DNA of 64,000 nucleotides from Candidatus Omnitrophota bacterium (GCA_041651115.1 JBAZJY010000002.1:350855-414854); one strand, 5' to 3'. Shown: positions 16,672 through 33,709, numbered from the stretch's first letter. The notes: a model not told the origin generated them from the letters alone. Translations and numbers: made by a program.

Positions 16672-16746
16672 GCCGAGGTAGCTCAGTGGTAGAGCGCGGC
16701 CCTGAAAAGGCCGGCGTGGGGGGTCCGATTCCCTCCCTCGGCACCA
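16672..16746 (+). tRNA. tRNA-Phe (anticodon GAA)
   Basis: Cloverleaf folded by hand: acceptor GCCGAGG/CCTCGGC, D-arm GCTCAGTGGTAGAGC, anticodon loop CTGAAAA, CCA encoded. Confidence 0.85.
16724..16743. repeat. attL: 20 bp core (tccgattccctccctcggca) inside the tRNA-Phe 3' end
   Basis: Identical 20-mer recurs at 33650..33669. Confidence 0.8.
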
Positions 16747-16752
16747 TATAAA

Positions 16753-16790
16753 AACGAGAGGTTCTCACAAGCCTCTCGTTTTGCTTTATT
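16753..16790 (+). terminator. Intrinsic terminator after tRNA-Phe
   Basis: cgagagg...cctctcg stem followed by a T-tract. Confidence 0.5.
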
Positions 16791-16919
16791 TAGGCGTAAT
16801 TGCTTCATTTTTGAGGCACTTACGCCTTTTTTGTTGCTTTGGATAACTTTGCATGAATTTACAGGGGTTTATATAACGCATTGTCTTAACGTCACCTTAA
16901 CGTCACAAGGAGGATAATT

Positions 16920-18044
16920 ATGAAAATTCAGGAACTGAGGGAAGATTTAACAGTTTTAGGGTTAGGGGATAATCTTAATTTAGCTGTATTGCTATATTTA
17001 TCCGCAACAGCCAGAAAGACCTCGTGCAAAATCTCCGTTCTTGTTTCCGGCCCTGCAGGATTAGGTAAATCTCATCTTGCCAAGAAGATATTAGAATTAT
17101 TCCCGTCAGAAGATATTATCGTAAGCTCCCGGATGACCCCCGCCGGTCTTATGGGGCTTGAAGATTTAAGGGGCAAGATCCTGTTTATTTACGAACGTTT
17201 TGAAGATCCGCTATTTGCTCAATACATTCGGGAGCTGATGACAGAGGGAGAAGTCAGGTATACCACGGCAGACGGCGAACGGTGTCTGAAGGGCCCGGTT
17301 ACCTTAATCGAGACTACCGTTAATCACAACATCATAGGTGCCGAGAACAGGTCGAGGTGTTTTGTGGTCGGCATAAATACTTCTCTCGAAGCAAAAAATG
17401 GAATTCTGGAGAAGCAGAAGGCGTTAAGAACCATGGAAGGTTTTCGTTATCAGGAGAATTTTGATTCTATTCAGAAAAAGCATAGGGAATTCCACCAAGG
17501 GTTAGACGAGTCTTTGTGGGTTATAATTCCCTTTGCGAAGAATATCAAATTTCAAGCCTCTCCGCATCACGCCCCGCGGATACTCCAGCGTGTCCTCAAT
17601 GTTATCGCAACTATAGCATATCTAGACCAGAATCCAACTCGTGTCGTCACTGAAGGCGGCACACGCTACATTGAAGCTACAACGACTGATTTCGAAGAAG
17701 CAAGGCAGCTACTTACCAATATTCCTATTGAAGAAGACGGTTCTCTGCTTTCTTATAAGGAGGTGGAATTTATTAATATGCTAAGAAGTCAAAGAGAGAG
17801 GCTGTCCAGAAAAACCTTTTTTTCGCGCAATGATTTATTGAATGCGTTGCCTCAAGAGAGCCCTTACAGGAGCTATAAGGTTGTTTCTAAAATCCTTGCT
17901 ACCATTAGTAGGCTTGGTTTCATTGATGAACTTCCGCTGCGGGGGATAAAGAATAGGGTAGAGTATCGTTTCAATAAGGAGTTTCCGTATATGTCTGAGG
18001 GGAATTCGATGTTGACGTGCTACTCAACGCTGAGTTTGGCGTAG
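16920..18044 (+). CDS. SF3-helicase-like P-loop NTPase (phage/plasmid primase-associated type)
   Basis: Walker A GPAGLGKS, acidic Walker-B-like FIYERFED, TTVNHN motif-C-like; first gene of the island. Confidence 0.5.
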   Translation: MKIQELREDLTVLGLGDNLNLAVLLYLSATARKTSCKISVLVSGPAGLGKSHLAKKILELFPSEDIIVSSRMTPAGLMGLEDLRGKILFIYERFEDPLFAQYIRELMTEGEVRYTTADGERCLKGPVTLIETTVNHNIIGAENRSRCFVVGINTSLEAKNGILEKQKALRTMEGFRYQENFDSIQKKHREFHQGLDESLWVIIPFAKNIKFQASPHHAPRILQRVLNVIATIAYLDQNPTRVVTEGGTRYIEATTTDFEEARQLLTNIPIEEDGSLLSYKEVEFINMLRSQRERLSRKTFFSRNDLLNALPQESPYRSYKVVSKILATISRLGFIDELPLRGIKNRVEYRFNKEFPYMSEGNSMLTCYSTLSLA

Positions 18045-18080
18045 TTTTGCCATAAGGCAGGGGAAGCAGATCTTGAGTTA

Positions 18081-18815
18081 TTGAAATTAGTTAGGTTAAA
18101 AATTTTAGTTTTGCCAGTTTTCACAAAAGAAAGGAATGACAAAATGGAAGACTTTAGAATTAAATACCGGCCACAAGATATGTCAGAAATTTGGGGCAAT
18201 GAATGTTTGAAAAAAAGATGGGCTGGGTATCTAAGGAGAAAATCTCCGCCTAAATCCATAATCTTGCACGGTAACTACGGCGTAGGCAAAACTACCCTAG
18301 CAAGGATTATTGGAGGGGATATCTTAAAACTCAGAGATAATAATTTTGGTTTATCTGGGGGTTTTCACGAATTGGATTCAACTAAGCTTGATTCTGAAAA
18401 CCTAAGAGGGTTTTTATCTAAGATTACGGGATATGTTCATGGAACTACGGTGTTGTTTTTTGACGAATTCCAAAGGATGCCCCCAAAGGCCCAAGAGATA
18501 CTTTTAAAGCCCGTTGAAGAGGACGACGATCTGTTTTGTGTCTTTGCAACAACGGATATGAACAGCATAGACGGCGGTATCCAATCAAGAAGCGATAAAT
18601 TCATCATCCAAAAACCCTCAATGGCGATCCTGATAGAGAAGCTTACTGAAATAGCCGAAAAAGAGGATATTGAGATTACGAAGGAAGCCTTGGGGTTTCT
18701 CATCGAGTTAGCTGATTATTCTCCACGCGAGTGCTTGGGGAATCTCTATTCTTTTGGGGGTTCCGATGGCATTATTGACGGAAAAGTGGTGCAACAATTC
18801 TTAAACCCTGATTAA
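18081..18815 (+). CDS. AAA+ ATPase, clamp-loader (DnaX/RFC-small)-like
   Basis: HGNYGVGKTTLARII Walker A, LFFDEFQRM Walker B, CVFATTD sensor-1. Confidence 0.6.
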   Translation: MKLVRLKILVLPVFTKERNDKMEDFRIKYRPQDMSEIWGNECLKKRWAGYLRRKSPPKSIILHGNYGVGKTTLARIIGGDILKLRDNNFGLSGGFHELDSTKLDSENLRGFLSKITGYVHGTTVLFFDEFQRMPPKAQEILLKPVEEDDDLFCVFATTDMNSIDGGIQSRSDKFIIQKPSMAILIEKLTEIAEKEDIEITKEALGFLIELADYSPRECLGNLYSFGGSDGIIDGKVVQQFLNPD

Positions 18816-19036
18816 GCAATAAAATTTTAAAATTCTCCGACGAGAAAATAAATTTAACTAAAAAATCCCTTGACAAATATTATCCGCTATGGTTTTTATT
18901 TATTTGTAGATGTGATGTAACATACTGTAAATAAATGAGTTATGTGTCAGGAGCGAAGCAGGGAATTATCAATTTTTCTCTGTAGCAAGAGCAATATAGG
19001 CATTATTAAACTTTTTCTCCGTGAGAGGAATAGATA

Positions 19037-20275
19037 TTGTCCGATTCAAAGAATAGAACTCCCCGGAGCCATATTTATAGGCGTCACAGGATGCACAGCC
19101 AGTCAATCATTGAACTGGAGCAGGCGATGCTGCCCGTCAAAGCGGCGATGCAGGCGCGCGGGCTCAATATCTGCTTGGAAAAATTAGATAGCCTAATCAA
19201 TAAGATTAACCATGAAAAATCAGACATAGAGTCTAACCTTCGCTCAAGCCTCGGCATTAAGGGCGAGATAAATTTCAACAGCTCAAAGGATATCGCGGTC
19301 ATTCTTTCCGCGGCCTTAGGGGTTAAATTGCTTAAGAGCCGCAGCGGTAGATTTATTACGAACAGGCAGGTTCTCCAAAATTTCAATAATCCTTTGACTG
19401 AAACTATTGCCCAATATCGCAACCTGCAAAAGATTTTGTCTTCCCTAACGGCTGTTTATGGAGCAACTGACAAAGCGGAAGCTAAACTATCCTGCATCTA
19501 TACTGATGATTGCCCCAGCGGTCGGCTTTATACCAAAAACTACAACATCCAAGGCATCGGCGAACTCTGCCGTGGTGTCGTTTATCCTGATGAGGGCTGT
19601 TCGTTTATCTTAGCGGACTACGATAGTTTTGAATTGCGAATTCTTAGCGCACTTGCCCACGATACCTATTTTAAAGACTGCTGGTCTAAAGGTTTGGATT
19701 TACACCGTAAAGTAGTCAGTGATATGAAAGGGATTCCCTACGAATCCGTAACTGCTAAGGAACGCAAACTCGGAAAATGTCTCAATTTCGGTCTTGCATA
19801 CGGTCAGGAGCCTCATGGATTGGCGCGTAATCTCCGTATTCCCGTTTCTGAGTCTTCTAAGTTAATGGCTGGCTATAAAAACAAGATTCCTAAGATTGAA
19901 GAATTTAAACGGGAGTCAATCCGTTCAGCGCATATCACCGGCTACACTAAGACTTACTACGGTCGCAAGCGCCTGCTTCCTGAAATCCTATCTTCTAATC
20001 TCCTCGATGCAAAGAAAGCTGAGCGGCAAGTCATTAATACCAAGATCCAAGGCACAGGGGCAGACATTGTTAAATTCAGCTTAGTTAAATTACATAACGC
20101 CGGGTTTAAAATAGACACCATGTTACACGACGGGATTTTAATTACGGTCTCAGACGATAAGGTCGACAGCAGCATTCAGAAGATCAGGGAAATTATGGAG
20201 ATAGAAATTGAAGGGATGAAATTTACTACTTCTATCAAAACCGGGAAGACGTGGGGCCAATGTCACCAATCTTAA
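19037..20275 (+). CDS. Family-A DNA polymerase, polymerase domain only (no exonuclease domains)
   Basis: Motif A ADYDSFELRIL, motif B KLGKCLNFGLAYG, motif C MLHDGIL; TTG start at 19037 or ATG at 19091. Confidence 0.75.
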   Translation: MSDSKNRTPRSHIYRRHRMHSQSIIELEQAMLPVKAAMQARGLNICLEKLDSLINKINHEKSDIESNLRSSLGIKGEINFNSSKDIAVILSAALGVKLLKSRSGRFITNRQVLQNFNNPLTETIAQYRNLQKILSSLTAVYGATDKAEAKLSCIYTDDCPSGRLYTKNYNIQGIGELCRGVVYPDEGCSFILADYDSFELRILSALAHDTYFKDCWSKGLDLHRKVVSDMKGIPYESVTAKERKLGKCLNFGLAYGQEPHGLARNLRIPVSESSKLMAGYKNKIPKIEEFKRESIRSAHITGYTKTYYGRKRLLPEILSSNLLDAKKAERQVINTKIQGTGADIVKFSLVKLHNAGFKIDTMLHDGILITVSDDKVDSSIQKIREIMEIEIEGMKFTTSIKTGKTWGQCHQS

Positions 20276-20293: not shown

Positions 20294-20427
20294 TTTTTAA
20301 CTTTTTTGGGCTGGCAAAAAGCTACCTGTTTATTGTGTATGGTCATAGTTTGACTTGTGCTGGGAGATTTTATGCTGATAAATGATTTTACCTTTTGAGC
20401 CAAAAATAACCCAACCTATGCCCTGTT
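20294..20427. repeat. 134 bp direct repeat, copy 1
   Basis: Perfect match to 24463..24596; contains promoter-like TTGACT-N17-TGCTGATAAAT. Confidence 0.9.
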
Positions 20428-20439
20428 AGAGTTTTTCTT

Positions 20440-20745
20440 ATGAAACTGTTACCGAAAGAACTGGCACAAAAGATACCTAATCTCTATTCGCAGGAATATA
20501 AGGGCGAAGAGGCGTTGGTTTATATTAAATTATTCGATCCCTGCAGTAACTGGGCATGGTTTGCCACGGAATTTGATGGTGAGGATACTTTTTTCGGATT
20601 AGTGATTGGCCATTTTACAGAACTGGGCTATTTCAGCTTAAAAGAATTAGAGAGTTTTCGCAACCGTCTTGGGCTGGGTATTGAAAGGGATTTGCATTTT
20701 ACACCTATGACTCTAAAGGAAGTGAGGGAAGTAAATGGCTGCTAG
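20440..20745 (+). CDS. DUF2958-like conserved phage/plasmid protein
   Basis: LPxLYSQE...KLFDP..NWAWFATEFDGEDTFFGLV..ELGYFSL.ELE....LGLGIERDLHF pattern recalled from plasmid/ICE proteins. Confidence 0.5.
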   Translation: MKLLPKELAQKIPNLYSQEYKGEEALVYIKLFDPCSNWAWFATEFDGEDTFFGLVIGHFTELGYFSLKELESFRNRLGLGIERDLHFTPMTLKEVREVNGC

Positions 20746-20793: not shown

Positions 20794-21399
20794 ATGACAA
20801 TACAAGAGCGCTACGAAGCATTAAAAGGTAAAGTCGTTAAGAGAAAGAAGGAATTCGATTCCTTCATAAAGATGTTGGAGTCAGAGTCAAGTTGGCTCAC
20901 AAGTCCGGCAAGCACGAGGTTCCATTTGAACAAAGAAGGTGGGCTTTTGGAGCATAGTGTTGGCGTTACTGAAACTCTCCTGAAATTCAGAGAGTTCCTC
21001 GCTCCTCAAATATCAGAGGAATCTTGCGTAATTGTTGGGCTTCTTCACGATGTCGGCAAGATAGGCATGCCTGGCAAACCTAGGTATTTGAAGAATGATA
21101 ACCAATGGGAGATCGATAAACGAGGTATTACCTATAAGATCAACCCCGCAGAGGTAGATATGAATCTTGCCGCACGCAGCTTGTATCTCATTGCAAAATA
21201 TATCCCGCTTTCTGACTCAGAGGCCCAAGCTGTTCTTTATCACGATGGCCAATTTTTAGATTTTAACAAGGAAGTGGCGCATAAAGAGACGCCCTTGACT
21301 CTTTTAGCGCATTGGGCTGATTACTGGACGGCGCATATCTATGAAGAAGGCCGTAGCATTAATGAAGATAGTGATTATTATACTGGAGATAGAAAATAA
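20794..21399 (+). CDS. HD-domain phosphohydrolase
   Basis: H..H, LLHDVGK and a late D motif of the HD superfamily. Confidence 0.7.
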   Translation: MTIQERYEALKGKVVKRKKEFDSFIKMLESESSWLTSPASTRFHLNKEGGLLEHSVGVTETLLKFREFLAPQISEESCVIVGLLHDVGKIGMPGKPRYLKNDNQWEIDKRGITYKINPAEVDMNLAARSLYLIAKYIPLSDSEAQAVLYHDGQFLDFNKEVAHKETPLTLLAHWADYWTAHIYEEGRSINEDSDYYTGDRK

Positions 21400-21401: not shown

Positions 21402-22355
21402 ATGTATCAACCAATGCATTCAGATTTTCTTATACACTGGACAGGCAAGGACATTGATGCAAAATATGACCCTAGGTGGTATACAGGACATTCATCGCGG
21501 ACAAGTGAGAAGGCTATCAAGTTATATTTGCAGCGTCTTAAAGGCATCTTATACCACGGCTTGTGGATGACAAAGCGCAGAGAAGATGAGACGGTTGTTA
21601 TTTATGATAACAATGGGAAGAGAAGAAAAATTAAGAGACCAGAAACAGCGAGGATATGTTTTACTGAATTGCGGCTGTCTGACGCGCGGGCTCATGCGAA
21701 AAAGTTTGGAAGGTTAGGTATTGGATTTAAAAGATTTTTTGTATTCAACCTTTTAGGAGCTCCCGTGGTCTATTTTCATCCTCAGAGAGCTAACTGGTTT
21801 TTTCCTCCTTATTTCGACTGGTTCAAAAAGATTGGCAAGGAAGCGTATTTCTCATGTTTTTTGAAAAAGATGGGGGAGAAAGATAGGAAAGACAGGACTT
21901 GGAAGTATAAGTTTTTCGATGAATCAGAATGGCGCGTAGTGTATTCTCCAGAGATTAAAGAAAAATTAGTAAGTATGGGGAGAACTGATGTATGTTCCGG
22001 ATTTAAAGAATCCGGAGATAAAGAATTTAAGAGGCTTGAAAGATATTTAGAAAAGACTGGCATAAAGGAGAGGCCGAGTTATCTCATTCCTATAAATCCA
22101 TCTCGGTGGTTCGCTATGATCATTTATCCTAGTTTAGCTGTAAAAGTCATAGCCGAAAGGGATCCCGATATTAGAAGAATTATAAATAAACTGAAATCTG
22201 GCAGAGAGAGCGTGGATGGGATGGAAGCAACCATCAGCAAAGATTGGCCATCAGGGGTATCTTCCGTCGGAGCTATCGGGAAGGCCAAATCGGCTTCCCT
22301 TGAAGATTTTAATCTGCCAATTCAGATTGACTTAGACGCTTGTAGAAATTTCTAG
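21402..22355 (+). CDS. Hypothetical protein (317 aa), function unknown
   Basis: ORF translationally coupled to the HD gene (stop and start 2 nt apart). Confidence 0.5.
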   Translation: MYQPMHSDFLIHWTGKDIDAKYDPRWYTGHSSRTSEKAIKLYLQRLKGILYHGLWMTKRREDETVVIYDNNGKRRKIKRPETARICFTELRLSDARAHAKKFGRLGIGFKRFFVFNLLGAPVVYFHPQRANWFFPPYFDWFKKIGKEAYFSCFLKKMGEKDRKDRTWKYKFFDESEWRVVYSPEIKEKLVSMGRTDVCSGFKESGDKEFKRLERYLEKTGIKERPSYLIPINPSRWFAMIIYPSLAVKVIAERDPDIRRIINKLKSGRESVDGMEATISKDWPSGVSSVGAIGKAKSASLEDFNLPIQIDLDACRNF

Positions 22356-22371: not shown

Positions 22372-23136
22372 ATGAATATACTTATTACAAATGACGATGG
22401 TATCAATTCTGATGGTATCTTCACTTTGTTCGAAGCGGTTAAAGAGCTTGGTAATGTAACCGTTGTAGCCCCTGATTCAGAACGAAGTGCCGCGGGCCAT
22501 GCTATAACGATATCCGATCCTTTGCGCGTGAAGACAGTGAACCGTAACGGTAAGTTTTTTGGATATGCGTGTTCAGGGACACCGGCGGACTGCGTCAAAC
22601 TAGCTGTAAGGGCATTGATGAAGGATAAACCCGACATAGTCATATCCGGGGTTAATCTGGGCCCAAACACTGGTTTTAGTGTTTTATACTCTGGTACGGT
22701 ATCAGGAGCAACTGAGGGTGCAATATTAGGCATACCAGCCTTTGCAATATCTCTGGGAACTTTCGATAACCCTGATTTTAGTATAGCAGCTGAATTTGCC
22801 AAAAAATTAGTAGTTCTGCTTAGAGAAAAAGGTCTTCCGAAGGGAACCCTGTTAAATGTCAATATCCCTGCTGTAAAAAATAGAAATGATATCAGAGGCA
22901 TAAAGGTTACTACTCAAAGCAAGACTTCATTGGTAGAGCATTTCGATAAGCGGGAGGATCCCCGTAAACACGTCTATTACTGGCTTACAGGTGAGCTGAT
23001 AGAGTTGGACGGGGAGGAAGATAGTGACATCAAAGCACTACGGGATAATTTTATCTCCATAAGCCCCGTTCATTGTGATATGACTAACCGCGCCTTTATC
23101 GATGAGCTAAAGAAGTGGGATTTTGAGAGGCGTTAA
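22372..23136 (+). CDS. surE: 5'/3'-nucleotidase SurE
   Basis: MNILITNDDGINSDGI N-terminus and a SurE-like core. Confidence 0.85.
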   Translation: MNILITNDDGINSDGIFTLFEAVKELGNVTVVAPDSERSAAGHAITISDPLRVKTVNRNGKFFGYACSGTPADCVKLAVRALMKDKPDIVISGVNLGPNTGFSVLYSGTVSGATEGAILGIPAFAISLGTFDNPDFSIAAEFAKKLVVLLREKGLPKGTLLNVNIPAVKNRNDIRGIKVTTQSKTSLVEHFDKREDPRKHVYYWLTGELIELDGEEDSDIKALRDNFISISPVHCDMTNRAFIDELKKWDFERR

Positions 23137-24206
23137 AATATATTAAAGGCCCGGCTGCAACCCAAGCTTTTGTTTTTTAAATACCAGCCTAAATTATCCA
23201 ATTCTCTATTGTCTTTTACGATCTGTTCGTAAATGTCCTCCCAAGTCAGATGGGTAAACCGCTTTTTGTATTCAGCTTTTAACATAGAGCGGACATTACG
23301 CATAACAGGCATGCTTTCAGGCTCGCCGCGCTTTAAATTCATCGCGTGCCTGTTCCTTAAGTTCACTACATACCATCTTTTCGCGCCTTCCAAATGAGCC
23401 ATTGATGCAGCGAATACAATATTCCTAAATAGCTGCTCGTAGAATGGGTTCGGCATATCACTAAAATCAAATATGCTGTTAGTATCTATTAGTTTGTTAT
23501 GGGTGCAGTATCTCGTTATTGACCTATCTGCTGCTTTTGGCTTTTCGCCCTCAACATCTTCTTTTTCTTTTGCTATAGAGTTTTTACTCCCAAACTTAGC
23601 CTCTATACATATGATAACCTTATTCGGGACGACAAGCATTATGTCCGGTTCAGTAGCGAATCGCTTTATATCACTTTCAAGGTGCTTGCGAACATCTAAT
23701 AGAGGGGCGTAAGGCGTGAATTTATTGTTTTTAAGATCAATCTTTCCGCCCCACAGATACAAGTCTACCTTATCCTTTATATCTTCATTGATTATTTGGC
23801 TCGCTAGTTTATTTAGCGCCAGTCCGTTTGATAGTAGCTCCGTAAATACATTGTAAGATACCGCATCTTCGCTGTTTTCATAGCACAGCCTTCCAGATTC
23901 CATTTTGTTGCCTTTTTTGAAGAAATTTGCTATGTAGTATTCTCCATTGAATAATAAATTACGCTTGGTGGCGGTCAGCAGGTTTGAGTCAAAGGGCCCA
24001 TTATAATATACGAATCCATTGGTATGTATCCGCAGGCCGTGTTCAGGGCAGAAGGGTAAATATCTCATTTTACCCTTGAAGCGCTGGAAGGGAACCTTAT
24101 GGCTATGGGTATCTGATGAGCAGTTTTTGATTGGGCAGCTATTAGGAAGTCTCGTTTTTTGAAGGTCGTTTCTGAAGAATGATATTGTGCAGCTTGAATC
24201 GGGCAT
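23133..24206 (-). CDS. PD-(D/E)xK-type nuclease with N-terminal Cys-rich (Zn-ribbon-like) region
   Basis: PDIMLVV...IICIEAKF matches a D..(D/E)xK core; CPIKNC...CPEHG; convergent with surE. Confidence 0.5.
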   Translation of the reverse strand: MPDSSCTISFFRNDLQKTRLPNSCPIKNCSSDTHSHKVPFQRFKGKMRYLPFCPEHGLRIHTNGFVYYNGPFDSNLLTATKRNLLFNGEYYIANFFKKGNKMESGRLCYENSEDAVSYNVFTELLSNGLALNKLASQIINEDIKDKVDLYLWGGKIDLKNNKFTPYAPLLDVRKHLESDIKRFATEPDIMLVVPNKVIICIEAKFGSKNSIAKEKEDVEGEKPKAADRSITRYCTHNKLIDTNSIFDFSDMPNPFYEQLFRNIVFAASMAHLEGAKRWYVVNLRNRHAMNLKRGEPESMPVMRNVRSMLKAEYKKRFTHLTWEDIYEQIVKDNRELDNLGWYLKNKSLGCSRAFNIF

Positions 24207-24462: not shown

Positions 24463-24596
24463 TTTTTAACTTTTTTGGGCTGGCAAAAAGCTACCTGTTT
24501 ATTGTGTATGGTCATAGTTTGACTTGTGCTGGGAGATTTTATGCTGATAAATGATTTTACCTTTTGAGCCAAAAATAACCCAACCTATGCCCTGTT
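24463..24596. repeat. 134 bp direct repeat, copy 2
   Basis: Perfect match to 20294..20427. Confidence 0.9.
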
Positions 24597-26126: not shown

Positions 26127-27293
26127 ATGCGCAGAGGCATAGTTGATATCGTACAGGAGAATAGCAGGGACATAGAAAGAAAAATTCTTTCTGAGTTCGC
26201 GACAAAAAGTTGTGATGCTTTAAGGCGGTTACCGGAGAAATTAGGCGTTAGGCCCGATTTCTTTAGGGACACGGATAGGATATTGCATTCTAAATGTTAT
26301 GCGAGATATATTGATAAAACACAGGTATTTTATTTATTTGATAATGATGATATTACTCATCGAGTATTACATGTTCAATTTGTCTCTAAGATTGCCAGAA
26401 CCATTGGTAGAGCTTTAAAACTGAATGAAGATTTAATTGAAGCAATAGCGTTAGGGCACGATGTTGGGCACCCTCCCTTTGGGCATGAAGGTGAAAGTTA
26501 CTTAGACGAACTTTGTTTGCATTACAAAATAGGTCATTTTGTTCATAGTGTTCAAGGAGTAATTTTTTTAGACAAAATTGAGAAAAGAATGGAGATAAAA
26601 CCATTGAATTTAAGTTTACAAGTTTTAGATGGCATACTTTGTCATGATGGCGAGAAATTTAATGATTATTTAATACCTCAAAGAAAGAAAACATGGTCAA
26701 CACATTATAATGAACGAAAGGAGAAGATGTTTAACAAGCAAGTAGCGCTCGTTCCAATGACCATGGAGGGTTGTGTTGTTAGATTTGCGGATGTTGTAAG
26801 CTATATTGGAAGAGATATTGAAGACGCTATAACGCTAAGACTAATAAAAAGACAAGATCTGCCAAGGGAATGTACAAAGGTATTAGGGGATAATAACAGA
26901 GATATAATTAACACATTAGTTACCGATTTGATAGAAAACAGCAAAAGAATTGGCGACAGGATATATTATAGTAAAAGAACCTCTAAGGTTTTAAAGAAAC
27001 TTAAGAAATTTAATGACAAAAATATCTACTTGAATAAAAAAATAAAGAGAGAATCCCCAAAAAATAAAAAATTATATACTCTTCTATTCGAAGAATTTCT
27101 TCATGATATAAAAGTAAAAAACAGTAGATCAGAAATATTTACTCAATGGAGTGACATTAAAGATGCCAAGTATATTTCAAAATGTAGACACCCAGAAATC
27201 GTACGCGATTTTTTGTCATCTCTTACAGATGATTATTTTATAGGGCTTTTTGAACGGAAATTTTTCCCAAGAAGATTTGGAATACATTTCTAA
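26127..27293 (+). CDS. dGTP-triphosphohydrolase-like HD-domain protein (Dgt family-like)
   Basis: H..RxxH at the N-terminus, ALGHDVGHPPFGHEGE signature of the dGTPase family, later D motif. Confidence 0.7.
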   Translation: MRRGIVDIVQENSRDIERKILSEFATKSCDALRRLPEKLGVRPDFFRDTDRILHSKCYARYIDKTQVFYLFDNDDITHRVLHVQFVSKIARTIGRALKLNEDLIEAIALGHDVGHPPFGHEGESYLDELCLHYKIGHFVHSVQGVIFLDKIEKRMEIKPLNLSLQVLDGILCHDGEKFNDYLIPQRKKTWSTHYNERKEKMFNKQVALVPMTMEGCVVRFADVVSYIGRDIEDAITLRLIKRQDLPRECTKVLGDNNRDIINTLVTDLIENSKRIGDRIYYSKRTSKVLKKLKKFNDKNIYLNKKIKRESPKNKKLYTLLFEEFLHDIKVKNSRSEIFTQWSDIKDAKYISKCRHPEIVRDFLSSLTDDYFIGLFERKFFPRRFGIHF

Positions 27294-27303: not shown

Positions 27304-27534
27304 ATGAGTAGAAACCAACATGTCGTTCCCTACGGAGACAAATGGGCTGTGCGAAAAGAAGGGAATACTAGGATAACATCTTCACACATAACTCGGAGAG
27401 ATGCTATCCATACTGCGAATAGAATTGCTTCGTCGGAAGCTTCTGAAGTGGTTATACATGGTAGAGACGGGAGAATTCGAGATAAAGACAGTTACGGTTA
27501 CGATGCGTTACCACCACGATGCAGGAAATACTAA
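27304..27534 (+). CDS. DUF2188-like small protein (paralog 2)
   Basis: MSRNQHVVPYGDKWAV...EVVIHGRDGRIRDKDSYG; RBS aaggagga; ORF-track start 27250 rejected. Confidence 0.6.
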   Translation: MSRNQHVVPYGDKWAVRKEGNTRITSSHITRRDAIHTANRIASSEASEVVIHGRDGRIRDKDSYGYDALPPRCRKY

Positions 27535-27686: not shown

Positions 27687-27935
27687 TCAAGCTAATTTAC
27701 ACTCGAATTCATCTAAGTCCTGCCGGCTTTTAGCAATGATTTCTTTTATGCATGTCTGGCAGTAAACCTTTCTTCCCATGCTGCCGGGAATAGGAACTAC
27801 AATGCATACAGTTCCTCCGTAAATCGCTGTGTTGCACCTTTTGCAAGTTCGTTTTCCTTTTGCAGTGTCTAATTTTGGCGCTCCATGTGTTCCATTGATA
27901 AGAGAAGGACATTTTCCACGTTTTTTACTTATCAC
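27687..27935 (-). CDS. Small Zn-ribbon protein (82 aa)
   Basis: CKRCN...CIVV...CQTC Cys quartet; directly downstream of the helicase and overlapping it. Confidence 0.45.
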   Translation of the reverse strand: MISKKRGKCPSLINGTHGAPKLDTAKGKRTCKRCNTAIYGGTVCIVVPIPGSMGRKVYCQTCIKEIIAKSRQDLDEFECKLA

Positions 27936-29952
27936 CCTTAGCCTCCTTTTTAGTTAAGCGTCTTGTTAGGACATTGAGAATATTGTCAAGGGCTTCTATC
28001 GCTTTTACATAGTCTTCAGTTCGTAACTTTTCCCGTTCGCCTTTTTCAATTCCGAGCTGCTTATTTACCTCATGATTTATAAGTTGGACAGCGGCTGCAA
28101 AGTTAGGCCCAGTGACTCCACTACTCTGAGCAAGTTTATAGGCTAAATCTTTTCCGTCAAATGAGATGTCCAAGCGATTCAACAATAGTTTTGCCGCTCG
28201 TTTTACCTCTTCATGCAAACGTCGCTTCGCCTCGTTCCTTTGCCGTTGGGGAATTACAGGGAAAGGTATGGTGGATTCCACTTTGTTTATTTTATCCCCT
28301 TGTTTATTTTTGAGGAATTCTGCTATGTCTTGAGCATCAATTCCAAGTGACTCAGCGGTAGCTTTCATTTCTTCGATAAGTATCTCGTCTTCCACATCAA
28401 TGAAATGTTCCTGTAGGAAGCTATCCACTATTTCATTGCGAATGATCGTAGATTCACTAAGTTTTAATCTTGTACTACCTTCAAGCACCTCTCGAGGAGG
28501 CTCGGGTTCTTTGCCTTTAATAATATCTGTGAAGAATTCTCGGTCGTCCCTGTCAATTTCACGGAAATCAGCAAGATGGGTATCTATGTTAAGCCCAATA
28601 TGTGTTACTATGTGACCATAATTATCAGGGTGTCGAGGGTCATTTTGGACGATGACACGCATTACTCGACCAACGAATTGGACATACGGTGGTAGGGTGC
28701 GGAAAGGCCTAAATATAGCTGCAACACTTAAATGAGGGTGGTCAAATCCCTCGCCGAGCATTTGAACTTGGATAATACAATCTAAGGCGCCCGCTCTCAA
28801 TTTATTTAAGACAGCATCTTGCTCATCGGGTAGCATTTTACTATGGATTTCCGCTGCTTCATAACCACGCTCAGCATATAGAGAGCGTATTGCCTTTGCA
28901 TGATTTACTGAACACGCAACTGCTATTAGTTGGTGCTTTGTTCCAGATTGCCGCAGATGTTCGAGTTTGTCGAGACTTGCGTCTACGATATTTTTATTAC
29001 AGACTGGGGATAAAGCCACACCACGACTAAACCATTCTTCATCTTTTAACACCAATACTTCTTCAAGTGTGTGGTATTTTTCATCACCTTCATATGTAAA
29101 ATAGAGTTCTTTAGGTGCGACATATGTTGCCTGTAATTTTTTTATGTAGCCTTTTATCATTGCCCGTTTGAATGAATACTTGTAAATTAGTTCACCTTCA
29201 ATTTCTTGTTGGTCACTTCTGAATGGCGTAGCAGTTAAATTAACAACCTTTGCATCCGGGAATCTACTAAATACTTTTTTCCAACTCGGGGCCGCACTAT
29301 GGTGTCCTTCGTCTACCAGAATCATATCAAAGAAATTATTTGTAAACTGTGGGAGCCAGCGGTCGGCGCTACTCGCCAGTTGCTGTATATTTGTCAAAAC
29401 AAAATGCGACTGTTCGCAATCATGGATGTTGGCATCGATGCTATCGAGAATAGCAAGATACGGGCCGGCTAAGGTTACGTCCGGATTCAGCACCCGGCAT
29501 TTAAACCAGAAGCAGTTTCTACGATTGGCGATATCTAAAGCCTTTCTTAATTCATCTCTGATGGTGAGATTTGGCGCGATCACGAGGATCCTTCCTTGGG
29601 CAATTCCAAGTGGAAGTAACGTAATGAGCCCTGATTTTCCACATCCAACCGGTAATTGAATTAACGCTTTTTTGGCTCCTTTCTCGAAAAAATTACGGGT
29701 TGCTATGTATGCTTCTTTCTGTGGGTCTCTTAATAGTAAATTGTCTTCTATTTTGAAATCCAGCGAAGCAAAGAAATTACCCATGGATTTATTAGCTTTT
29801 ATCCACTTGTCTAATTCAAGAACTTGGAATCGCCACATTTTTCCTACTTTGTGAGCAGGTATCCGGTTGCTCTGCGCAAGTGCGTATAAATTCGTTATGC
29901 TGATATCAAGATATTTTGCTGCTTCCTCTGCGTTTAGCCATTCTTCTCTCAT
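27925..29952 (-). CDS. HTH (excisionase/MerR-like) + SF2 DEAH/ResIII-type helicase
   Basis: N-terminal LNAEEAAKYLDISITNLY...HKVG.MWRF HTH; Walker A PVGCGKSG; DEGH box; TATP motif III; QFVGRVMR motif VI. Confidence 0.75.
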   Translation of the reverse strand: MREEWLNAEEAAKYLDISITNLYALAQSNRIPAHKVGKMWRFQVLELDKWIKANKSMGNFFASLDFKIEDNLLLRDPQKEAYIATRNFFEKGAKKALIQLPVGCGKSGLITLLPLGIAQGRILVIAPNLTIRDELRKALDIANRRNCFWFKCRVLNPDVTLAGPYLAILDSIDANIHDCEQSHFVLTNIQQLASSADRWLPQFTNNFFDMILVDEGHHSAAPSWKKVFSRFPDAKVVNLTATPFRSDQQEIEGELIYKYSFKRAMIKGYIKKLQATYVAPKELYFTYEGDEKYHTLEEVLVLKDEEWFSRGVALSPVCNKNIVDASLDKLEHLRQSGTKHQLIAVACSVNHAKAIRSLYAERGYEAAEIHSKMLPDEQDAVLNKLRAGALDCIIQVQMLGEGFDHPHLSVAAIFRPFRTLPPYVQFVGRVMRVIVQNDPRHPDNYGHIVTHIGLNIDTHLADFREIDRDDREFFTDIIKGKEPEPPREVLEGSTRLKLSESTIIRNEIVDSFLQEHFIDVEDEILIEEMKATAESLGIDAQDIAEFLKNKQGDKINKVESTIPFPVIPQRQRNEAKRRLHEEVKRAAKLLLNRLDISFDGKDLAYKLAQSSGVTGPNFAAAVQLINHEVNKQLGIEKGEREKLRTEDYVKAIEALDNILNVLTRRLTKKEAKGDK

Positions 29953-30296: not shown

Positions 30297-31112
30297 ATGA
30301 ATTCCGACGAGATTGCGGTTGGCTATATACGAGTTAGCAGTATCAATCAGGTGGAAAATGGTGGTGGTTTGGCTATCCAGAGGAAGAAGATAACCAACTT
30401 CTGCAGAGAAAAAGGCTACAATCTAGAACGTTTCTACGAAGAAAGGGGAATTTCCGGCAGCATTAAAGAACGCCCTGCGTTATTAAGATTGTTAAAGGAC
30501 TGCGAGTCTGGTTTAATCAAAAGGGTAGTAGTTTTTCGTCAGGATAGGTTAGCTCGTGAATTAACAGTTTCCCTCTGGCTCGAGACTCAATTCAAGAAAT
30601 ATGATGTAGCAGTCAGCTCAGTTCTGGATCCAGAACTCGATATGAATGACCCGCTGCAGCTCGCTTTTAAAAGGCTGATTGATGTGTTTGCTGAATTAGA
30701 GAAAACACTTATTGTGACCCGTCTTAGAGAAGGCCGGGTTGATAAGGCCGAGAATGGACGTAGAGCTGTCGGTGCAATTGCTTTTGGCTATTATAAAGAG
30801 AAAGACGGTTTGGTTGTTAACCTTGAAGAATCCGAATGGGTGAAAAAGATTTTTCGGAACGCAGCTAAGGGAAAGAAATACTCAGAGATTGTGGCGATGC
30901 TTAAAAAGAACGGCGTAGTTACACGGCGAAAGAAACCGTTCAGTATTGAAACAGTTAAGTATGTCTTACGAAACTCTTTTTATTATGGTGAGTCAACCTA
31001 CGGCGATATAAAGAGCAGGGGGGAGCATAGGCCTATTATTAGTAAACGACTTTTTGTTAGAGTTCAAAAGGTCAAAAGGAAAGAAGTATTGTTACCAGCT
31101 AGGGTTTCGTAG
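30297..31112 (+). CDS. Serine recombinase (resolvase/invertase family)
   Basis: VGYIRVSS catalytic Ser motif, RLARE; RBS aggagg 8 nt upstream of ATG 30297. Confidence 0.8.
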   Translation: MNSDEIAVGYIRVSSINQVENGGGLAIQRKKITNFCREKGYNLERFYEERGISGSIKERPALLRLLKDCESGLIKRVVVFRQDRLARELTVSLWLETQFKKYDVAVSSVLDPELDMNDPLQLAFKRLIDVFAELEKTLIVTRLREGRVDKAENGRRAVGAIAFGYYKEKDGLVVNLEESEWVKKIFRNAAKGKKYSEIVAMLKKNGVVTRRKKPFSIETVKYVLRNSFYYGESTYGDIKSRGEHRPIISKRLFVRVQKVKRKEVLLPARVS

Positions 31113-31631
31113 TTCGTTGATGTTCATTTTTTCCGAATGGCTCTGGAATTCTGGCATATGAGGCCAACAGGATACTTCCTGAAGTCGCTTTAAATGTTCT
31201 TGAGTGACGATTAGTGATTCCCGTTTTTTCCCGTTGCGAAGAAGGCTTCTAAAGAATTGACGCCTTAAATAATAATCAAGTTTCTTAGCATTTTTAAGGT
31301 AAGAATCGTAATCCTCAGGGTCATCATGGACTTTTCTAATCCAGTCGATTATTGTATTGGGTCGGGTATTAAGCGCGCGGGCAATATCGATAATACGCAT
31401 CCCGTTATTGTATCGACCAATTGCATCATCGAATTTATCGGGTGACACGCGCATTCCTTTGAAAAATGGCTCTTGAAGTAGCGTGAATGCTTTTTTGCAG
31501 CTTCGACAGTAAATCCTCTGCACTGCGGGTTTATTTTTCAACCTGCGTTTCCCGTAATAAATAGCGATTTTGTGACATTCTGGACAAGGTTCTTTGTAAG
31601 GCATAGGTAGATTATACCGCAGAAACGCCAA
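31092..31631 (-). CDS. InsA-like Zn-ribbon + HTH protein (IS1-type transposase N-terminal fragment or regulator)
   Basis: CPEC...CRSCKKAF Zn ribbon followed by an HTH (IIDIARALNTRPNTI). Confidence 0.45.
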   Translation of the reverse strand: MAFLRYNLPMPYKEPCPECHKIAIYYGKRRLKNKPAVQRIYCRSCKKAFTLLQEPFFKGMRVSPDKFDDAIGRYNNGMRIIDIARALNTRPNTIIDWIRKVHDDPEDYDSYLKNAKKLDYYLRRQFFRSLLRNGKKRESLIVTQEHLKRLQEVSCWPHMPEFQSHSEKMNINELRNPSW

Positions 31632-31833: not shown

Positions 31834-32016
31834 ATGGAGCGCTTTATTAAGGTTGAGTGTTTGAGATGTGGTGAGCAATACTATATACCAGCGTATAAGC
31901 TCCCGCAAGAAAAGGCAGAGATTCTTGATGCAGCTTTCCCTAGCAGGTGTCCCTTTTGCGAAGATAGCGATTACGCTGTATTAACAGTTCCAAACGAACT
32001 TAAGAAAAGGAAATAA
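31834..32016 (+). CDS. Small Zn-ribbon protein (60 aa)
   Basis: CLRCG...CPFC; strong RBS aggaggtgag. Confidence 0.35.
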   Translation: MERFIKVECLRCGEQYYIPAYKLPQEKAEILDAAFPSRCPFCEDSDYAVLTVPNELKKRK

Positions 32017-32095
32017 CACGGTGCAGCAGGAGTTTGGGTTGTTATCCTGAACTCCTGCTGCCAAAAAATGTAATTTAAGCTATGGAGGTAATCAA

Positions 32096-32320
32096 ATGAA
32101 GGCAATCTGGAATGGCGAAAAGTTATTGATTAGACGCAAACAAGTAGGGTTAACTATGGCTGAATTAGCCGCAAAAGTGGATTGTGACCGGCCATTGGTG
32201 TCAATGTGGGAAGCAGGCAAGGTAGCTCCGTCCGGGCATTTTCTTGTGATGCTCGGCATCACATTGAATATTGAGCCGAAAGAGTTTTATAATCTGGAGG
32301 ACGAAGGAGTGCAGCTATGA
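32096..32320 (+). CDS. XRE/Cro-type HTH regulator
   Basis: LTMAELAAKVDCDRPLVSMWE HTH. Confidence 0.6.
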   Translation: MKAIWNGEKLLIRRKQVGLTMAELAAKVDCDRPLVSMWEAGKVAPSGHFLVMLGITLNIEPKEFYNLEDEGVQL

Positions 32321-32508
32321 GTAACCTTTTAACTCCAGAGCAAGTATGCGAGAGGTATGGTATAAGCCGGTGGACGCTCTATCAGTGGACATCCAAGCAT
32401 CTTATACCATATCTCAAGATTAGAGGGCTAAACCGTTTCAGGGAAGAAGATCTTGAGAAGTGGGAAGAACAAAATCTGGTAAGCGATGGGAAGGCTGAAT
32501 TGGTATGA
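32317..32508 (+). CDS. xis: Excisionase / AlpA-like HTH protein
   Basis: QVCERYGISRWTLYQW motif; immediately upstream of the integrase and overlapping it. Confidence 0.6.
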   Translation: MSNLLTPEQVCERYGISRWTLYQWTSKHLIPYLKIRGLNRFREEDLEKWEEQNLVSDGKAELV

Positions 32509-33572
32509 GACAGCGTTATCGAATGCCAAAATCTATTTACCCCCGTGGCAACTGGTATTGCTTTAAGGTAACTACTTCTTATGGCAAGAGAGTCGAGGTT
32601 AAGTCAGCCACCATGGAAGAGGCGCGTAAGAAACGCAACGATATAGAGCGTCAGATATTCAGTGCCGTGTCTGGAGATCCATCCTATAGAGTTAGCCTTG
32701 AGCATGGAATAGGGTTTTGGCTAAAAATTAAGAAAGGAAGTATCGACGATACCTCATATGATAGATACCGGGGATGTTTAGATAACTTCCTTGATTATAT
32801 TAAGGCAAAACGCTCCGATTTACAATATTTCGACCAAATAAAAGCGGAGGACATTAAGGCATTTATGGACTATCGGATCGAAGAGAAGGGGCGGGCGACT
32901 AAGACCGTGAATTCTGAAAGGCTGGCTTTATACAACTTATTTCTTACCTTGATTAAACATAAGAAAATTGAAGGTAGTAATCCCGTGGAAAATGTTGACC
33001 CATTAAAAATGATTAAGGTCCAAAAGAGGCATGCTCTTTCTGATGAGGAATTGTTGAAATTTCTTGAGGGTGCCAAGGCAGAAAGCGGGGCTATTAATTG
33101 GTATGCTATCTTTCTTACCTTATATATAACCGGCATGAGAAGGGATGAGGTTCGGAAGATGGAGAAAACAGCAATAGACCTGTCCAGAAATCTGATAATT
33201 ATTTTGAACACCAAAACCGATAAGCCAAAGATCATACCGATACATCCTGAATTGCGGCCAGTATTGCAGCAGGCGTTGGGGCAGTCCAATAGCGGCTTGG
33301 TATTTCCTAACTCTAAAGGCGGGCTGCTTCATAAGAACAAAATTCGGGATAAGATGATTCAGATATGTGAGAGGGTCGGTATCCCTAAAGCAACGGTTCA
33401 CGATTTACGCCATACATTCGCGAGCCGCCCAGAATTATCCGGTATGGCCAAGCAACTTATAGGCGGTTGGAGCAGCAAGCAGGTAATGGAGAAAACCTAT
33501 ATTCACGCCCCCGAGGATTATGTTCGAGATGAGTATTTTAAGGTTAAGTTCATACCGAAGGCAGGAAACTAA
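32505..33572 (+). CDS. int: Tyrosine integrase (phage integrase family)
   Basis: Conserved R...HDLRHTFAS...Y catalytic region; adjacent to attR. Confidence 0.85.
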   Translation: MRQRYRMPKSIYPRGNWYCFKVTTSYGKRVEVKSATMEEARKKRNDIERQIFSAVSGDPSYRVSLEHGIGFWLKIKKGSIDDTSYDRYRGCLDNFLDYIKAKRSDLQYFDQIKAEDIKAFMDYRIEEKGRATKTVNSERLALYNLFLTLIKHKKIEGSNPVENVDPLKMIKVQKRHALSDEELLKFLEGAKAESGAINWYAIFLTLYITGMRRDEVRKMEKTAIDLSRNLIIILNTKTDKPKIIPIHPELRPVLQQALGQSNSGLVFPNSKGGLLHKNKIRDKMIQICERVGIPKATVHDLRHTFASRPELSGMAKQLIGGWSSKQVMEKTYIHAPEDYVRDEYFKVKFIPKAGN

Positions 33573-33649
33573 TGTCACGCTATCGTCACGAAAGGATGTT
33601 GCAAATGTCAGAACCTTCTGATAATATAGATAATTATGCAAAACCGGGA

Positions 33650-33669
33650 TCCGATTCCCTCCCTCGGCA
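33650..33669. repeat. attR: second copy of the 20 bp tRNA-Phe 3' core
   Basis: tccgattccctccctcggca identical to 16724..16743. Confidence 0.8.
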
Positions 33670-33680
33670 TTTAAATTTTA

Positions 33681-33709
33681 AGAGGGGTTATCGCAACCCC
33701 TCTTTTTTA
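33681..33709 (+). terminator. Intrinsic terminator (probably the ancestral tRNA-Phe terminator)
   Basis: agagggg...cccctct stem plus a T-tract. Confidence 0.5.

Follow-up and report, generated by a model that had tools for sequence, protein, structure and literature searches.

The segment 16744-33669 of the window, as we call the 64,000 nucleotides of a Candidatus Omnitrophota bacterium analyzed here, is very probably a site-specific integrative element that inserted via a tyrosine integrase within a 20-bp core and shares its backbone with a whole family of elements. This 17 kb island in tRNA-Phe joins what appears to be a small DNA-replication kit, consisting of an MCM-like helicase and a stripped-down Pol I-type polymerase, with swappable anti-phage genes (Table 1).

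Table 1. Features of the island and its boundaries, in window coordinates.
Feature	Coordinates	Strand	Remarks
tRNA-Phe(GAA)	16672..16746	+	Gene intact; ARAGORN and Rfam calls
attL core	16724..16743	+	20-nt exact repeat, T-loop to discriminator base
Element-borne trailer	16744..16827	+	CCA; terminator hairpin 16755-16778 plus U-run; second hairpin GGCGTAA..TTACGCC 16792-16827
P' arm	16885..16906	+	Tandem CTTAACGTCAC x2, directly before RBS of first gene; proposed arm-type Int/Xis sites
MCM-like AAA+ helicase (X)	16920..18044	+	374 aa; C-terminal winged helix; NCBI MFA5156803.1
Clamp-loader-like AAA+	18144..18815	+	223 aa; DnaX/RFC-small-subunit-like
Family A DNA polymerase (PolA)	19091..20275	+	394 aa; Pfam DNA_pol_A 4.7e-70
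Perfect internal direct repeat, copy 1	20294..20427	+	134 nt
DUF2958	20440..20745	+	Small beta-barrel protein
HD phosphohydrolase	20794..21399	+	201 aa; semi-conserved accessory gene
AbiGi-like protein	21402..22355	+	Weak match, 1.1e-7
SurE 5'/3'-nucleotidase	22372..23136	+	
PD-(D/E)XK nuclease	23133..24206	-	Pfam family REase-ARP
Perfect internal direct repeat, copy 2	24463..24596	+	134 nt
DUF2188	24912..25142	+	PADLOC candidate defence gene PDC-S16
Protein with no family match	25273..26019	+	248 aa
dGTPase-type HD triphosphohydrolase	26127..27293	+	PADLOC anti-phage dGTPase 1.2e-49; Pfam HD + HD_assoc
Second DUF2188 / PDC-S16	27304..27534	+	
Protein coupled to helicase	27687..27935	-	82 aa; 72% identity in L076
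SF2 helicase	27925..29952	-	675 aa; N-terminal excisionase-like HTH; HTH_17 + ResIII + Helicase_C; backbone
Small serine recombinase	30297..31112	+	~271 aa; Resolvase + Recombinase domains, catalytic YIRVSS; backbone
HTH protein	31092..31631	-	Weak match
XRE-family regulator	32096..32320	+	HTH_3
Excisionase (Xis)	32317..32508	+	HTH_17
Tyrosine integrase (Int)	32505..33572	+	355 aa; Phage_integrase 4.8e-20; NCBI MFA5156819.1
P arm	33571..33589	+	AATGTCAC-gc-TATCGTCAC; paired repeats akin to P' arm
attR core	33650..33669	+	Original 3' end of tRNA-Phe, displaced
Native tRNA-Phe trailer	33670..33709	+	Own terminator; no CCA

Insertion site and recombination module

The initial annotation had proposed a tRNA-Phe target carrying an exact 20-bp repeat, a second att copy directly after an XRE/excisionase/integrase trio, a terminator of its own at each junction and a patchy GC content of the insert, and all of these proposals hold up. 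ARAGORN and Rfam agree on tRNA-Phe(GAA) on the + strand (16672-16746/16743; Rfam, 63.5 bits). The 20-mer TCCGATTCCCTCCCTCGGCA begins at the T-loop's first base and stops at the discriminator base. The window contains two copies of it and no more (16724-16743 and 33650-33669), also when up to three mismatches are allowed, and 100 shuffles gave no match; if one mismatch is accepted, the identity grows to 24 nt (GGG[G/A] followed by the 20-mer). A dispersed repeat is ruled out across 51 species genomes, where the 20-mer is a single tRNA 3' end (tRNA-Phe in Omnitrophota) and a second copy is found only at the same locus. After the attL core come CCA, a 13-bp hairpin and a U-run (-20.9 kcal/mol, z -6.2); after the attR core come TTT in place of CCA, a 10-bp hairpin and U6 (-15.1 kcal/mol, with a weaker z of -2.2). 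The element-borne trailer is kept in the related elements L066, L070, L036 and L034, and the native trailer resembles those of unoccupied relatives (for example L021, L041 and L045). The 3' part of tRNA-Phe from the crossover onward, including CCA, is contributed by the element. GC content is 0.33-0.44 within the island and ~0.47 in the flanks. A second island, located at tRNA-Met and lacking an integrase, is also present in the window.

The XRE/Xis/Int trio ends 78 nt before the attR core, and the catalytic residues of the integrase, which aligns to XerA, are all present in its translation: R (GMRRDE), H-x-x-R (HDLRH) and Y (TYIH). Pairs of the AACGTCAC type (x2) are found in both arms of the window element, L066 and L070, while the related element L076, whose integrase is 27% identical, carries GGTGGTG x2 on both sides. 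We propose that these paired repeats, which co-vary with the integrase type as expected of arm-type binding sites, are putative sites of this kind. At the sequence level, the core is flanked on either side by repeated motifs that go with the integrase type, and an excisionase is encoded, as in lambda-type systems. Also in keeping with the Islander definition of tRNA-integrated genomic islands (PMC4383910), the tRNA gene is regenerated intact by island sequence, the displaced fragment recurs as a direct repeat at the opposite boundary (20/20), a tyrosine integrase with its catalytic residues lies inside, and related genomes of other species have the site free.

The comparison with relatives that lack the insertion bears out the initial annotation; it covers ~40 Omnitrophota MAGs, of other species and not of the same strain, which retain the upstream HycI-SNF-tRNA-Phe synteny in the absence of the element. 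In six of the relatives (L045, L020, L033, L040, L038 and L019) the tRNA is separated by 0.07-1.1 kb (72-1100 bp) from a cold-shock gene downstream. The suggested size of about 17 kb is right for the DNA between the repeats but not when measured against element-free relatives, where the extra DNA amounts to 23 kb; of this, 6.1 kb (33.7-39.7 kb) lies outside the repeats and encodes GT9, methyltransferase, radical SAM and TPR proteins. Scars of earlier events are visible at the same tRNA in L014, L040, L012, L007 and L052, and since several relatives harbour additional, degraded versions of the tRNA end, the tRNA-Phe site is a recurrent integration hotspot.

The description of the island as still excisable is only partly sustained. 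The core (20/20), the R-H-R-Y integrase, Xis and the arm repeats are intact, but neither the attP junction (..AAAACCGGGA-core-CCATATAAAAAC..) nor the empty attB of the same strain (..GGCGTGGGGGG-core-TTTAAATTTTAAG..) was found, so that present-day excision is inferred. The attP 29-mer had no matches in JGI metagenome contigs, no variant contig carrying the flank proteins was found, and the only other assemblies of the population also hold the integrated element. These negative results fit a fixed, no longer mobile island, i.e., a real but old insertion whose recombination module is out of use and whose repeats are a scar, as do the decay of insertions at neighbouring loci (L012, L040 and L052, among others, have degenerate copies) and the absence of an integrase from the tRNA-Met island of the same window. 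We nevertheless regard such a relic as unlikely, given the identity of the core, full-length frames for the integrase, Xis, XRE and serine recombinase with catalytic residues in place, both arm repeat pairs intact and a GC content still about 5-10 points under that of the flanks.

A family backbone with exchangeable defence genes

The PolA consists of the polymerase domain alone, with no exonuclease domains, and carries HDG as motif C, according to Klenow and family alignments. Among 29 aligned sequences of its family, D194, E199, R243, K247, F251, Y255, H364 and D365 are invariant; they include both metal-binding Asp (D194 and D365) and the O-helix residues (R243, K247, F251 and Y255) expected of the PolA-SSB type. 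The polymerase is likewise linked to an MCM-like helicase, X lying two genes upstream, and to site-specific recombinases (serine and tyrosine). Throughout the family, the HDE of Klenow is replaced by HD[G/S/A], and since the Glu is missing, the activity could be altered. Where the sequence of a related element reaches far enough, the DUF2958 gene in most cases comes after PolA. The DUF2958 product gave no significant match to OB folds; as DUF2958 has >4000 homologues, far above the size of the PolA family, it is not an exclusive partner of PolA.

Replication of the island would be carried out by this PolA module. Tentatively, the MCM-like protein, the clamp-loader-like AAA+ protein and PolA-DUF2958 may form a minimal replisome in which the exonuclease-less PolA both primes and extends. 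If this is true, a class of family-A 'self-synthesizing' integrative elements exists outside Bacillota. The same block (MCM-like, AAA+, PolA and DUF2958, with or without HD-SurE-REase) could instead be an anti-phage defence system and not replication machinery, a reading to which we give little credence.

The island belongs to an apparently undescribed family that is confined almost to Omnitrophota; we found no description of such islands for this phylum. PolA homologues form 83 clusters, the named ones being nearly all from Omnitrophota, and in 9 of the 11 distinct elements with upstream sequence PolA is preceded, at a distance of 0.9-2.7 kb and in the same orientation, by a complete tRNA (Phe, Ser-GCT/CGA/GGA, Gln or Asn). 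The attL side of the family backbone comprises the MCM-like helicase with winged helix, the clamp-loader-like AAA+ protein, the exonuclease-less PolA and DUF2958, and its attR side the SF2 helicase with HTH, the small serine recombinase, XRE, Xis and Int. L076 is a complete relative with a matching distal repeat (18/20) that has the SF2 helicase (84%), the serine recombinase (78%), X, AAA, PolA and DUF2958 in common with the window element, and differs from it in integrase and tRNA. Another genome, L066, has an attP-type junction in which Int is followed by part of a tRNA-Phe end and then by the left arm and X; this junction lies within a 199-kb contig and thus indicates tandem elements. The MCM-like and AAA+ genes are missing from relatives of the Asn type, and no integrase was found within 13 kb of the tRNA in L057.

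The region that separates the two backbone modules carries exchangeable defence genes. Here they are the dGTPase, two DUF2188/PDC-S16 genes, the AbiGi-like gene and the HD-SurE-REase trio; in relatives, type I and II RM, AbiJ, ThiF/E2 and AAA_13 are found. The dGTPase, for which a defence role is predicted, matches its model over the full length (E = 1.2e-49, positions 27-373/395), and DUF2188 matches PDC-S16 at 1e-30. No neighbour of the AbiGi-like gene matched the AbiGii model, and we rejected an AbiG abortive infection system, which requires the AbiGi-AbiGii pair. The initial annotation was correct in seeing replication, recombination and defence-like genes in the insert, but its label of cargo does not suit the replication genes, which are conserved family backbone.

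The int-xis-XRE arrangement together with a replication module of its own is typical of satellites, the 17 kb fall within their size range, and a helper phage would account for transfer with no conjugation genes. A cryptic prophage or helper-dependent phage satellite (PICI/P4-like) is nonetheless quite improbable: among 21 proteins, PHROGs and Pfam gave no match to capsid, terminase, portal, tail or packaging-redirection functions, the 20-mer and relatives of PolA are absent from IMG/VR, and no entry of the phage collection reaches 30% identity to PolA. Relaxase, T4SS/T4CP, conjugation and packaging genes were not found in the island. The 201-aa HD protein gave a sub-threshold match to MobH (E = 0.005, 30 residues), and classification as an ICE or IME was rejected for lack of a relaxase. 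An assembly chimera in which the repeat joins unrelated contigs can practically be dismissed, even though the source is a metagenome assembly and one Logan contig breaks within the core (a break explained by a 30-mer that also occurs at another tRNA-Phe locus in that sample), as MEGAHIT and Logan each assembled the attR junction (perhaps from one population or even one set of reads), the attL junction lies inside a 487-kb ENA contig, the element's proteins also occur on a 579-kb NCBI/JGI contig (proteins only) and like architecture is repeated in independent genomes.

Proposed life cycle and relation to known systems

For the integrative element that we favour, integration brought in a new tRNA 3' end, complete with CCA and terminator, and left the displaced one, next to the native terminator, at the far junction. 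XRE would hold the element quiescent. Int plus Xis, acting on the paired arm repeats that flank the core, would release a circle of 16.9 kb, to be opened and unwound by the MCM-like protein; PolA would copy it, possibly primed with DUF2958 in the fashion of SCCmec CcPol-MP, and Int would put it back into a free tRNA-Phe. Swaps of the integrase and arm-site module would, if the tentative replisome reading is true, retarget elements to different tRNA genes.

As in other tRNA islands (Islander-type, with lambda/P4-like att), the tRNA is split and regenerated with a displaced 3' fragment at the far end, a tyrosine integrase and an excisionase are present, the core occupies the T-loop-to-3'-end sublocation and arm repeats lie on both sides. 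Differently from these islands, the integrase here is at the tRNA-distal end, the element provides the CCA that the native gene lacks, and a second (serine) recombinase is present. Satellites of the SaPI/PICI type carry a Rep helicase and primase, int-xis and a repressor; in contrast to them, the island encodes its own polymerase, with no packaging or capsid-remodelling genes and no helper-phage link.

SCCmec and SCC-like elements encode either Cch, an MCM-like helicase, or CcPol-MP-Cch2, i.e., a PolA-domain primase, a small ssDNA-binding protein and a helicase, which sets a precedent for integrative elements that carry a PolA-plus-small-protein primase beside a helicase of the MCM-like or Rep kind; the published PolA-SSB pairs are all in Bacillota (PMC7581432, PMC10061031). 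Cch/CcPol-MP would be the closest precedent for the PolA module. The present system differs in its Omnitrophota host, in combining the MCM-like gene and PolA on one element together with a clamp-loader-like AAA+ protein, in its gene order (helicase-AAA-Pol-small protein), in a PolA devoid of an exonuclease remnant, in a DUF2958 with no significant OB-fold match, and in the use of tRNA genes and a tyrosine integrase, whereas SCCmec and SCC-like elements use rlmH or ssrA and large serine recombinases.

Self-synthesizing elements, among them pipolins (piPolB) and casposons, have been described as defence islands (PMC11551731, PMC7385651). Like the island described here, they are tRNA-integrated and bimodular, have direct repeats at their ends and pair a conserved backbone of polymerase and recombinase genes with defence systems that can be exchanged. 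Membership among pipolins was rejected, since the polymerase is of family A (DNA_pol_A 4.7e-70) and not of family B. Primer-independent synthesis is hypothetical here. If the proposed replisome is real, such elements would serve as exchangeable, pipolin-like platforms for defence genes in ultra-small uncultured Omnitrophota.

Boundaries and gene content of the tRNA-Phe island

The insertion is delimited by two copies of a 20-mer, TCCGATTCCCTCCCTCGGCA, which spans the first T-loop base to the discriminator base of a tRNA-Phe(GAA) gene on whose position ARAGORN and Rfam agree. A scan of the window revealed no further copies at up to 3 mismatches (0 matches in 100 dinucleotide-preserving shuffles), and the identity between the two copies reaches 24 nt if one mismatch is accepted. 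The left copy is followed by CCA, a 13-bp hairpin and a U-run (-20.9 kcal/mol, z -6.2), whereas the right copy is followed by TTT, not CCA, and by its own 10-bp hairpin and U6 (-15.1 kcal/mol, with a weaker z of -2.2). The encoded CCA, absent from most native tRNA-Phe copies, is present on the element-supplied end. An XRE regulator, an HTH_17 excisionase (Xis) and a tyrosine integrase (Int) form a trio that stops 78 nt short of the right copy, and GC content is 0.33-0.44 within the element versus approximately 0.47 in its flanks. The initial annotation had described the exact direct repeat in tRNA-Phe, the trio preceding its second copy, a separate intrinsic terminator at each junction, patchy GC and a content of replication, recombination and defence-like genes; all of these were recovered here.

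Starting from the attL side, the genes encode a 374-aa P-loop protein (X) with an MCM-like fold and a winged helix, a 223-aa DnaX/RFC-like AAA+ protein, a 394-aa family A polymerase (PolA) that has the polymerase domain alone, DUF2958, a 201-aa HD protein, a protein with weak similarity to AbiGi, a genuine SurE nucleotidase (exceeding the NCBIfam cut-off) and a PD-(D/E)XK nuclease, REase-ARP. These are followed by a DUF2188 protein (PADLOC PDC-S16, 1e-30), a 248-aa protein without family, a dGTPase (PADLOC 1.2e-49), a second DUF2188 protein, an 82-aa protein, a 675-aa SF2 helicase whose N terminus bears an excisionase-like HTH, a serine recombinase of 271 aa, an HTH protein, a zinc-ribbon peptide and, up to attR, XRE, Xis and Int. 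The recombination genes are intact, with R, H-x-x-R and Y all present at the catalytic positions of the integrase and YIRVSS conserved in the serine recombinase. Phage structural, packaging, relaxase and type IV secretion genes are absent from the element. Literature searches for "REase-ARP" and "DUF2958" returned nothing useful.

A 134-nt perfect direct repeat flanks the 4.2-kb DUF2958-HD-AbiGi-SurE-REase segment, and a part of approximately 50 nt is found again at intergenic spots of related elements (L060/L069, L066, L073). It has no Rfam match and its + strand fold is unremarkable (z -1.2); its possible roles are those of a shared promoter/operator or of a site at which cargo is exchanged by recombination. 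Note also that the T-loop of this tRNA-Phe carries C at position 55 (our numbering), as it does in about 40 Omnitrophota MAGs (loci L007-L056). Transfer RNAs normally have U (pseudouridine) at this position.

Coordinates of features in the window
Feature	Position	Remarks
c-di-GMP-I riboswitch	10782-10920	73 bits, exceeds gathering score; upstream of the studied region
tRNA-Phe(GAA)	16672-16746	+ strand
T-loop of tRNA-Phe	16724-16730	TCCGATT
attL core (left 20-mer)	16724-16743	
Element	16744-33669	
134-nt repeat, first copy	20294-20427	
134-nt repeat, second copy	24463-24596	
attR core (right 20-mer)	33650-33669	
6.1-kb block	33670-39790	GT9 glycosyltransferase, methyltransferase, B12-radical SAM, TPR protein, 272-aa protein without assignment
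Cold-shock gene	39792-39992	
Region after cold-shock gene	40435-58030	
tRNA-Met(CAT)-bounded island	51712-56357	4.6 kb, GC 0.36-0.42
Repeat of the last 17 nt of tRNA-Met	56341-56357	AAATCCTCTCCCCGCAA

The occupied site and its relatives

The flanks are ordinary chromosome, with a hydrogenase maturation protease (HycI) and an SNF-family symporter (SNF) upstream, and a GT9 glycosyltransferase, a methyltransferase and a radical SAM enzyme downstream. The window belongs to a 487-kb ENA metagenome contig, and its element proteins recur on a 579-kb contig of an NCBI Candidatus Omnitrophota MAG (MFA5156803.1, MFA5156805.1, MFA5156819.1). Scanning the 20-mer against one genome per species gave 51 loci, most of them in Omnitrophota MAGs, whose near-invariant tRNA-Phe has the 20-mer as its 3' end; the Anaerolineae matches correspond to a tRNA-CAU with an identical 3' end. 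Across species the 20-mer does not behave as a dispersed repeat. The HycI-SNF-tRNA-Phe synteny is kept upstream in about 40 of the 51 loci (SNF 72-85% identical), and none of these carries any element gene, which supplies the comparison with relatives lacking the insertion that had been proposed initially. Where enough downstream sequence exists, tRNA-Phe is followed in relatives by the cold-shock gene, at a distance of 72 bp (L045), 125 bp (L020), 351 bp (L033), 658 bp (L040) or about 1.05-1.1 kb (L038, L019). The trailers of L041, L045 and L021, the closest relative by SNF and HycI, resemble the window after the right repeat (TTTA.., a hairpin, then TTTTTTATT) and have the appearance expected of an unoccupied attB.

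Compared with these genomes the window carries 23 kb of extra DNA, comprising the bounded 17-kb element and a 6.1-kb block that separates attR from the cold-shock gene, the direct neighbour of tRNA-Phe in relatives. A third att copy near 39.7 kb, by which this GT9-rSAM block would qualify as a second island, was not found at up to 6 mismatches; no recombinase is found within the block (33.7-39.7 kb). Sugar-related genes occupy the equivalent position in other species as well, e.g. L034. Beyond the cold-shock gene, L019, L031, L033 and L040 continue with homologues of window genes from 58031 on, and L020, L012 and L053 with homologues from about 40510 on; the 40.5-58 kb stretch is therefore variable among relatives. 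We also would like to point out a second, smaller island bounded by a tRNA-Met(CAT) repeat, low in GC, with genes for a prephenate-dehydratase-like protein, an AIPR abortive-infection protein and a RES-domain protein; an integrase was not seen there.

In several relatives, further copies of the tRNA-Phe 3' end, in part degraded, lie shortly downstream of the gene: an exact copy at +157 (L007), two copies in L040 (1 mismatch in that at +200, 5 in that at +362), one with 1 mismatch 2.1 kb away (L014), one with 4 mismatches 2 kb away, just ahead of the cold-shock gene (L012), and a degenerate copy in tandem (L052). In L034 and L036 the first ~95 nt of the element left arm are kept, followed by unrelated genes, so that these loci are scars or different elements. 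Together, decayed copies and leftover left arms show that tRNA-Phe is a hotspot at which integration has recurred in the phylum. L034 and L053 were considered as sister elements, sharing the element's "CCATATAAAA + hairpin" trailer, but their downstream genes are ordinary (sugar genes, DUF134), and an apparent tblastx match of L012 to the integrase end was not upheld on inspection. The degenerate second 3' ends immediately after tRNA-Phe in L052 (7897-7937) and L012 (36-76) resemble the other tRNA-Phe type (TTCGATTCTTCTCCTCGGCA) used by the elements L066 and L070, a hint that element-borne copies have replaced the tRNA 3' end in the past. In another Omnitrophota MAG (L008, 3299-4879), a 526-aa large serine recombinase lies directly after tRNA-Phe, and the trailer motif C[TA]GTATTGTAAGGTTGACCCTAAAGG is common to L008, L011, L017, L023 and L044; this may be a different, serine-recombinase-driven element at the same tRNA.

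The initial reading of a still-excisable genomic island stands as regards island architecture, and current excision is what we infer from the sequence. The attP junction would read AAAACCGGGATCCGATTCCCTCCCTCGGCACCATATAAAAACGAG and the empty attB GGCGTGGGGGGTCCGATTCCCTCCCTCGGCATTTAAATTTTAAGAGG. In the search for the circular form, the attP junction 29-mer had no match in JGI metagenome contigs, and exact look-ups of flank proteins for a same-strain empty site returned only the occupied contig or nothing. The Logan contig L002, starting at core base 2, was rejected as an attP-derived branch. The shared 30-mer ends at CCATATAAAAA, as calibrated on other contig ends, where the 134-nt internal repeat gives an overlap of k-1 = 30. 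This indicates that the sample contains a different tRNA-Phe locus whose trailer is similar, and hence gives no evidence for attP.

A family with a conserved backbone and exchangeable parts

PolA homologues of about 390 aa fall into 83 clusters, nearly all named ones being from Omnitrophota, and no relatives above 30% identity were found in phage or plasmid collections or in IMG/VR. The block X-AAA-PolA-DUF2958 recurs in their neighbourhoods, often with HD, SurE and REase behind it, and is placed with striking regularity. Of the 11 distinct elements whose upstream sequence reaches far enough, 9 have an entire tRNA gene on the same strand, 0.9-2.7 kb ahead of PolA: Phe (window, L070), Ser-GCT (L057/L064), Ser-CGA (L076), Ser-GGA (L079), Gln (L060/L069, L068) and Asn (L061/L074, L077); the remaining two are L066, with a tRNA-Phe fragment, and L067, without a tRNA. 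Downstream cargo varies by element (type I RM with AAA_13; NgoPII/Vsr/Dcm with AbiJ and MazG; ThiF/E2 with two N6/N4 methylases). A complete relative, L076, sits at tRNA-Ser(CGA) with an 18/20 repeat 12.7 kb distal and shares the right-hand gene set (82-aa protein 72%, helicase 84%, serine recombinase 78%, XRE 62%), whereas its integrase is only 27% identical. Shared ends and differing cargo thus define a bipartite backbone, with replication-type genes at attL and helicase, recombinases and regulators at attR, between which defence genes are swapped.

The 175-bp left arm, conserved among the window, L066 and L070, carries two hairpins, the first of them the terminator, and, right before the RBS of X, a tandem CTTAACGTCAC x2; the right arm contains AATGTCAC..TATCGTCAC 60-78 nt upstream of the core (arm repeats AACGTCAC). 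In L076, with another integrase and another tRNA, paired GGTGGTG(AAA) repeats occupy equivalent positions in both arms. The repeats therefore co-vary with the integrase and not with the replication genes, the pattern expected of arm-type sites, and are putative Int/Xis binding sites. Within the 199-kb contig of L066, Xis-Int and a small ORF precede a partial tRNA-Phe end (GATTCTTCTCCTCGGCACCA), after which come the left arm and X. This is an attP-type junction of the kind that tandem elements produce, and it verifies independently which sequences form the two ends.

PolA aligns with Klenow over the polymerase domain from start to end. An alignment of 29 family members shows no variation in motif A (DYDSFELR), motif B (RKLGKxLNFGxxYG) or the motif C His-Asp, so that the polymerase active-site residues are conserved, and G, S or A takes the place of Klenow E883 throughout. 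Retention of the steric-gate Glu (E199) points to dNTP use. The family is coherent, apparently undescribed and almost restricted to Omnitrophota, and combines an MCM-like and PolA replication backbone, swappable integrase/arm modules and exchangeable defence cargo.

Proposed cycle and comparison with known systems

We propose that a crossover within the 20-bp core, brought about by Int and Xis, would release a 16.9-kb circle, that the MCM-like/winged-helix protein would act as initiator-helicase, and that PolA would copy the circle, assisted by the clamp-loader-like AAA+ protein and perhaps primed with DUF2958, by analogy with CcPol-MP (PMC7581432, PMC10061031). The serine recombinase may serve multimer resolution or cargo exchange, and XRE would govern the switch. 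The cargo (dGTPase, PDC-S16, AbiGi-like and possibly HD-SurE-REase) would help the host against phages.

To our knowledge, Omnitrophota is a phylum without cultured genetics. The family offers a concrete, alignable system for defence-gene shuffling there, and closely related backbones with different integrases, matching arm repeats and different tRNAs constitute a natural experiment on integration-specificity swaps.

As a tRNA-borne island the element is a textbook, ordinary kind of object, with the structure by which Islander recognises tRNA genomic islands (PMC4383910) and an inferred excision; judged by their defining genes, it is not a prophage, satellite, ICE or IME. What sets it apart is the joining of an MCM-like helicase and a truncated Pol I-type polymerase, which had so far been reported apart from each other, on SCC-like elements of Bacillota. 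Its way of working resembles that of SCC-type replicative islands and pipolins, but it belongs to neither group. Differently from SCC-type islands, it integrates at tRNAs by a tyrosine integrase. The OB-fold of PolA-SSB primases was not convincingly found in the element, and the published PolA-SSB pairs are all in Bacillota (PMC10061031). Pipolins follow the same logic of a conserved backbone with exchanged defence genes (PMC11551731), but use a family B polymerase where the element has family A. If the latter self-primes, A-family primase-polymerases would extend to a distant phylum, and the element would be a family A counterpart to PolB-based self-synthesizing elements.
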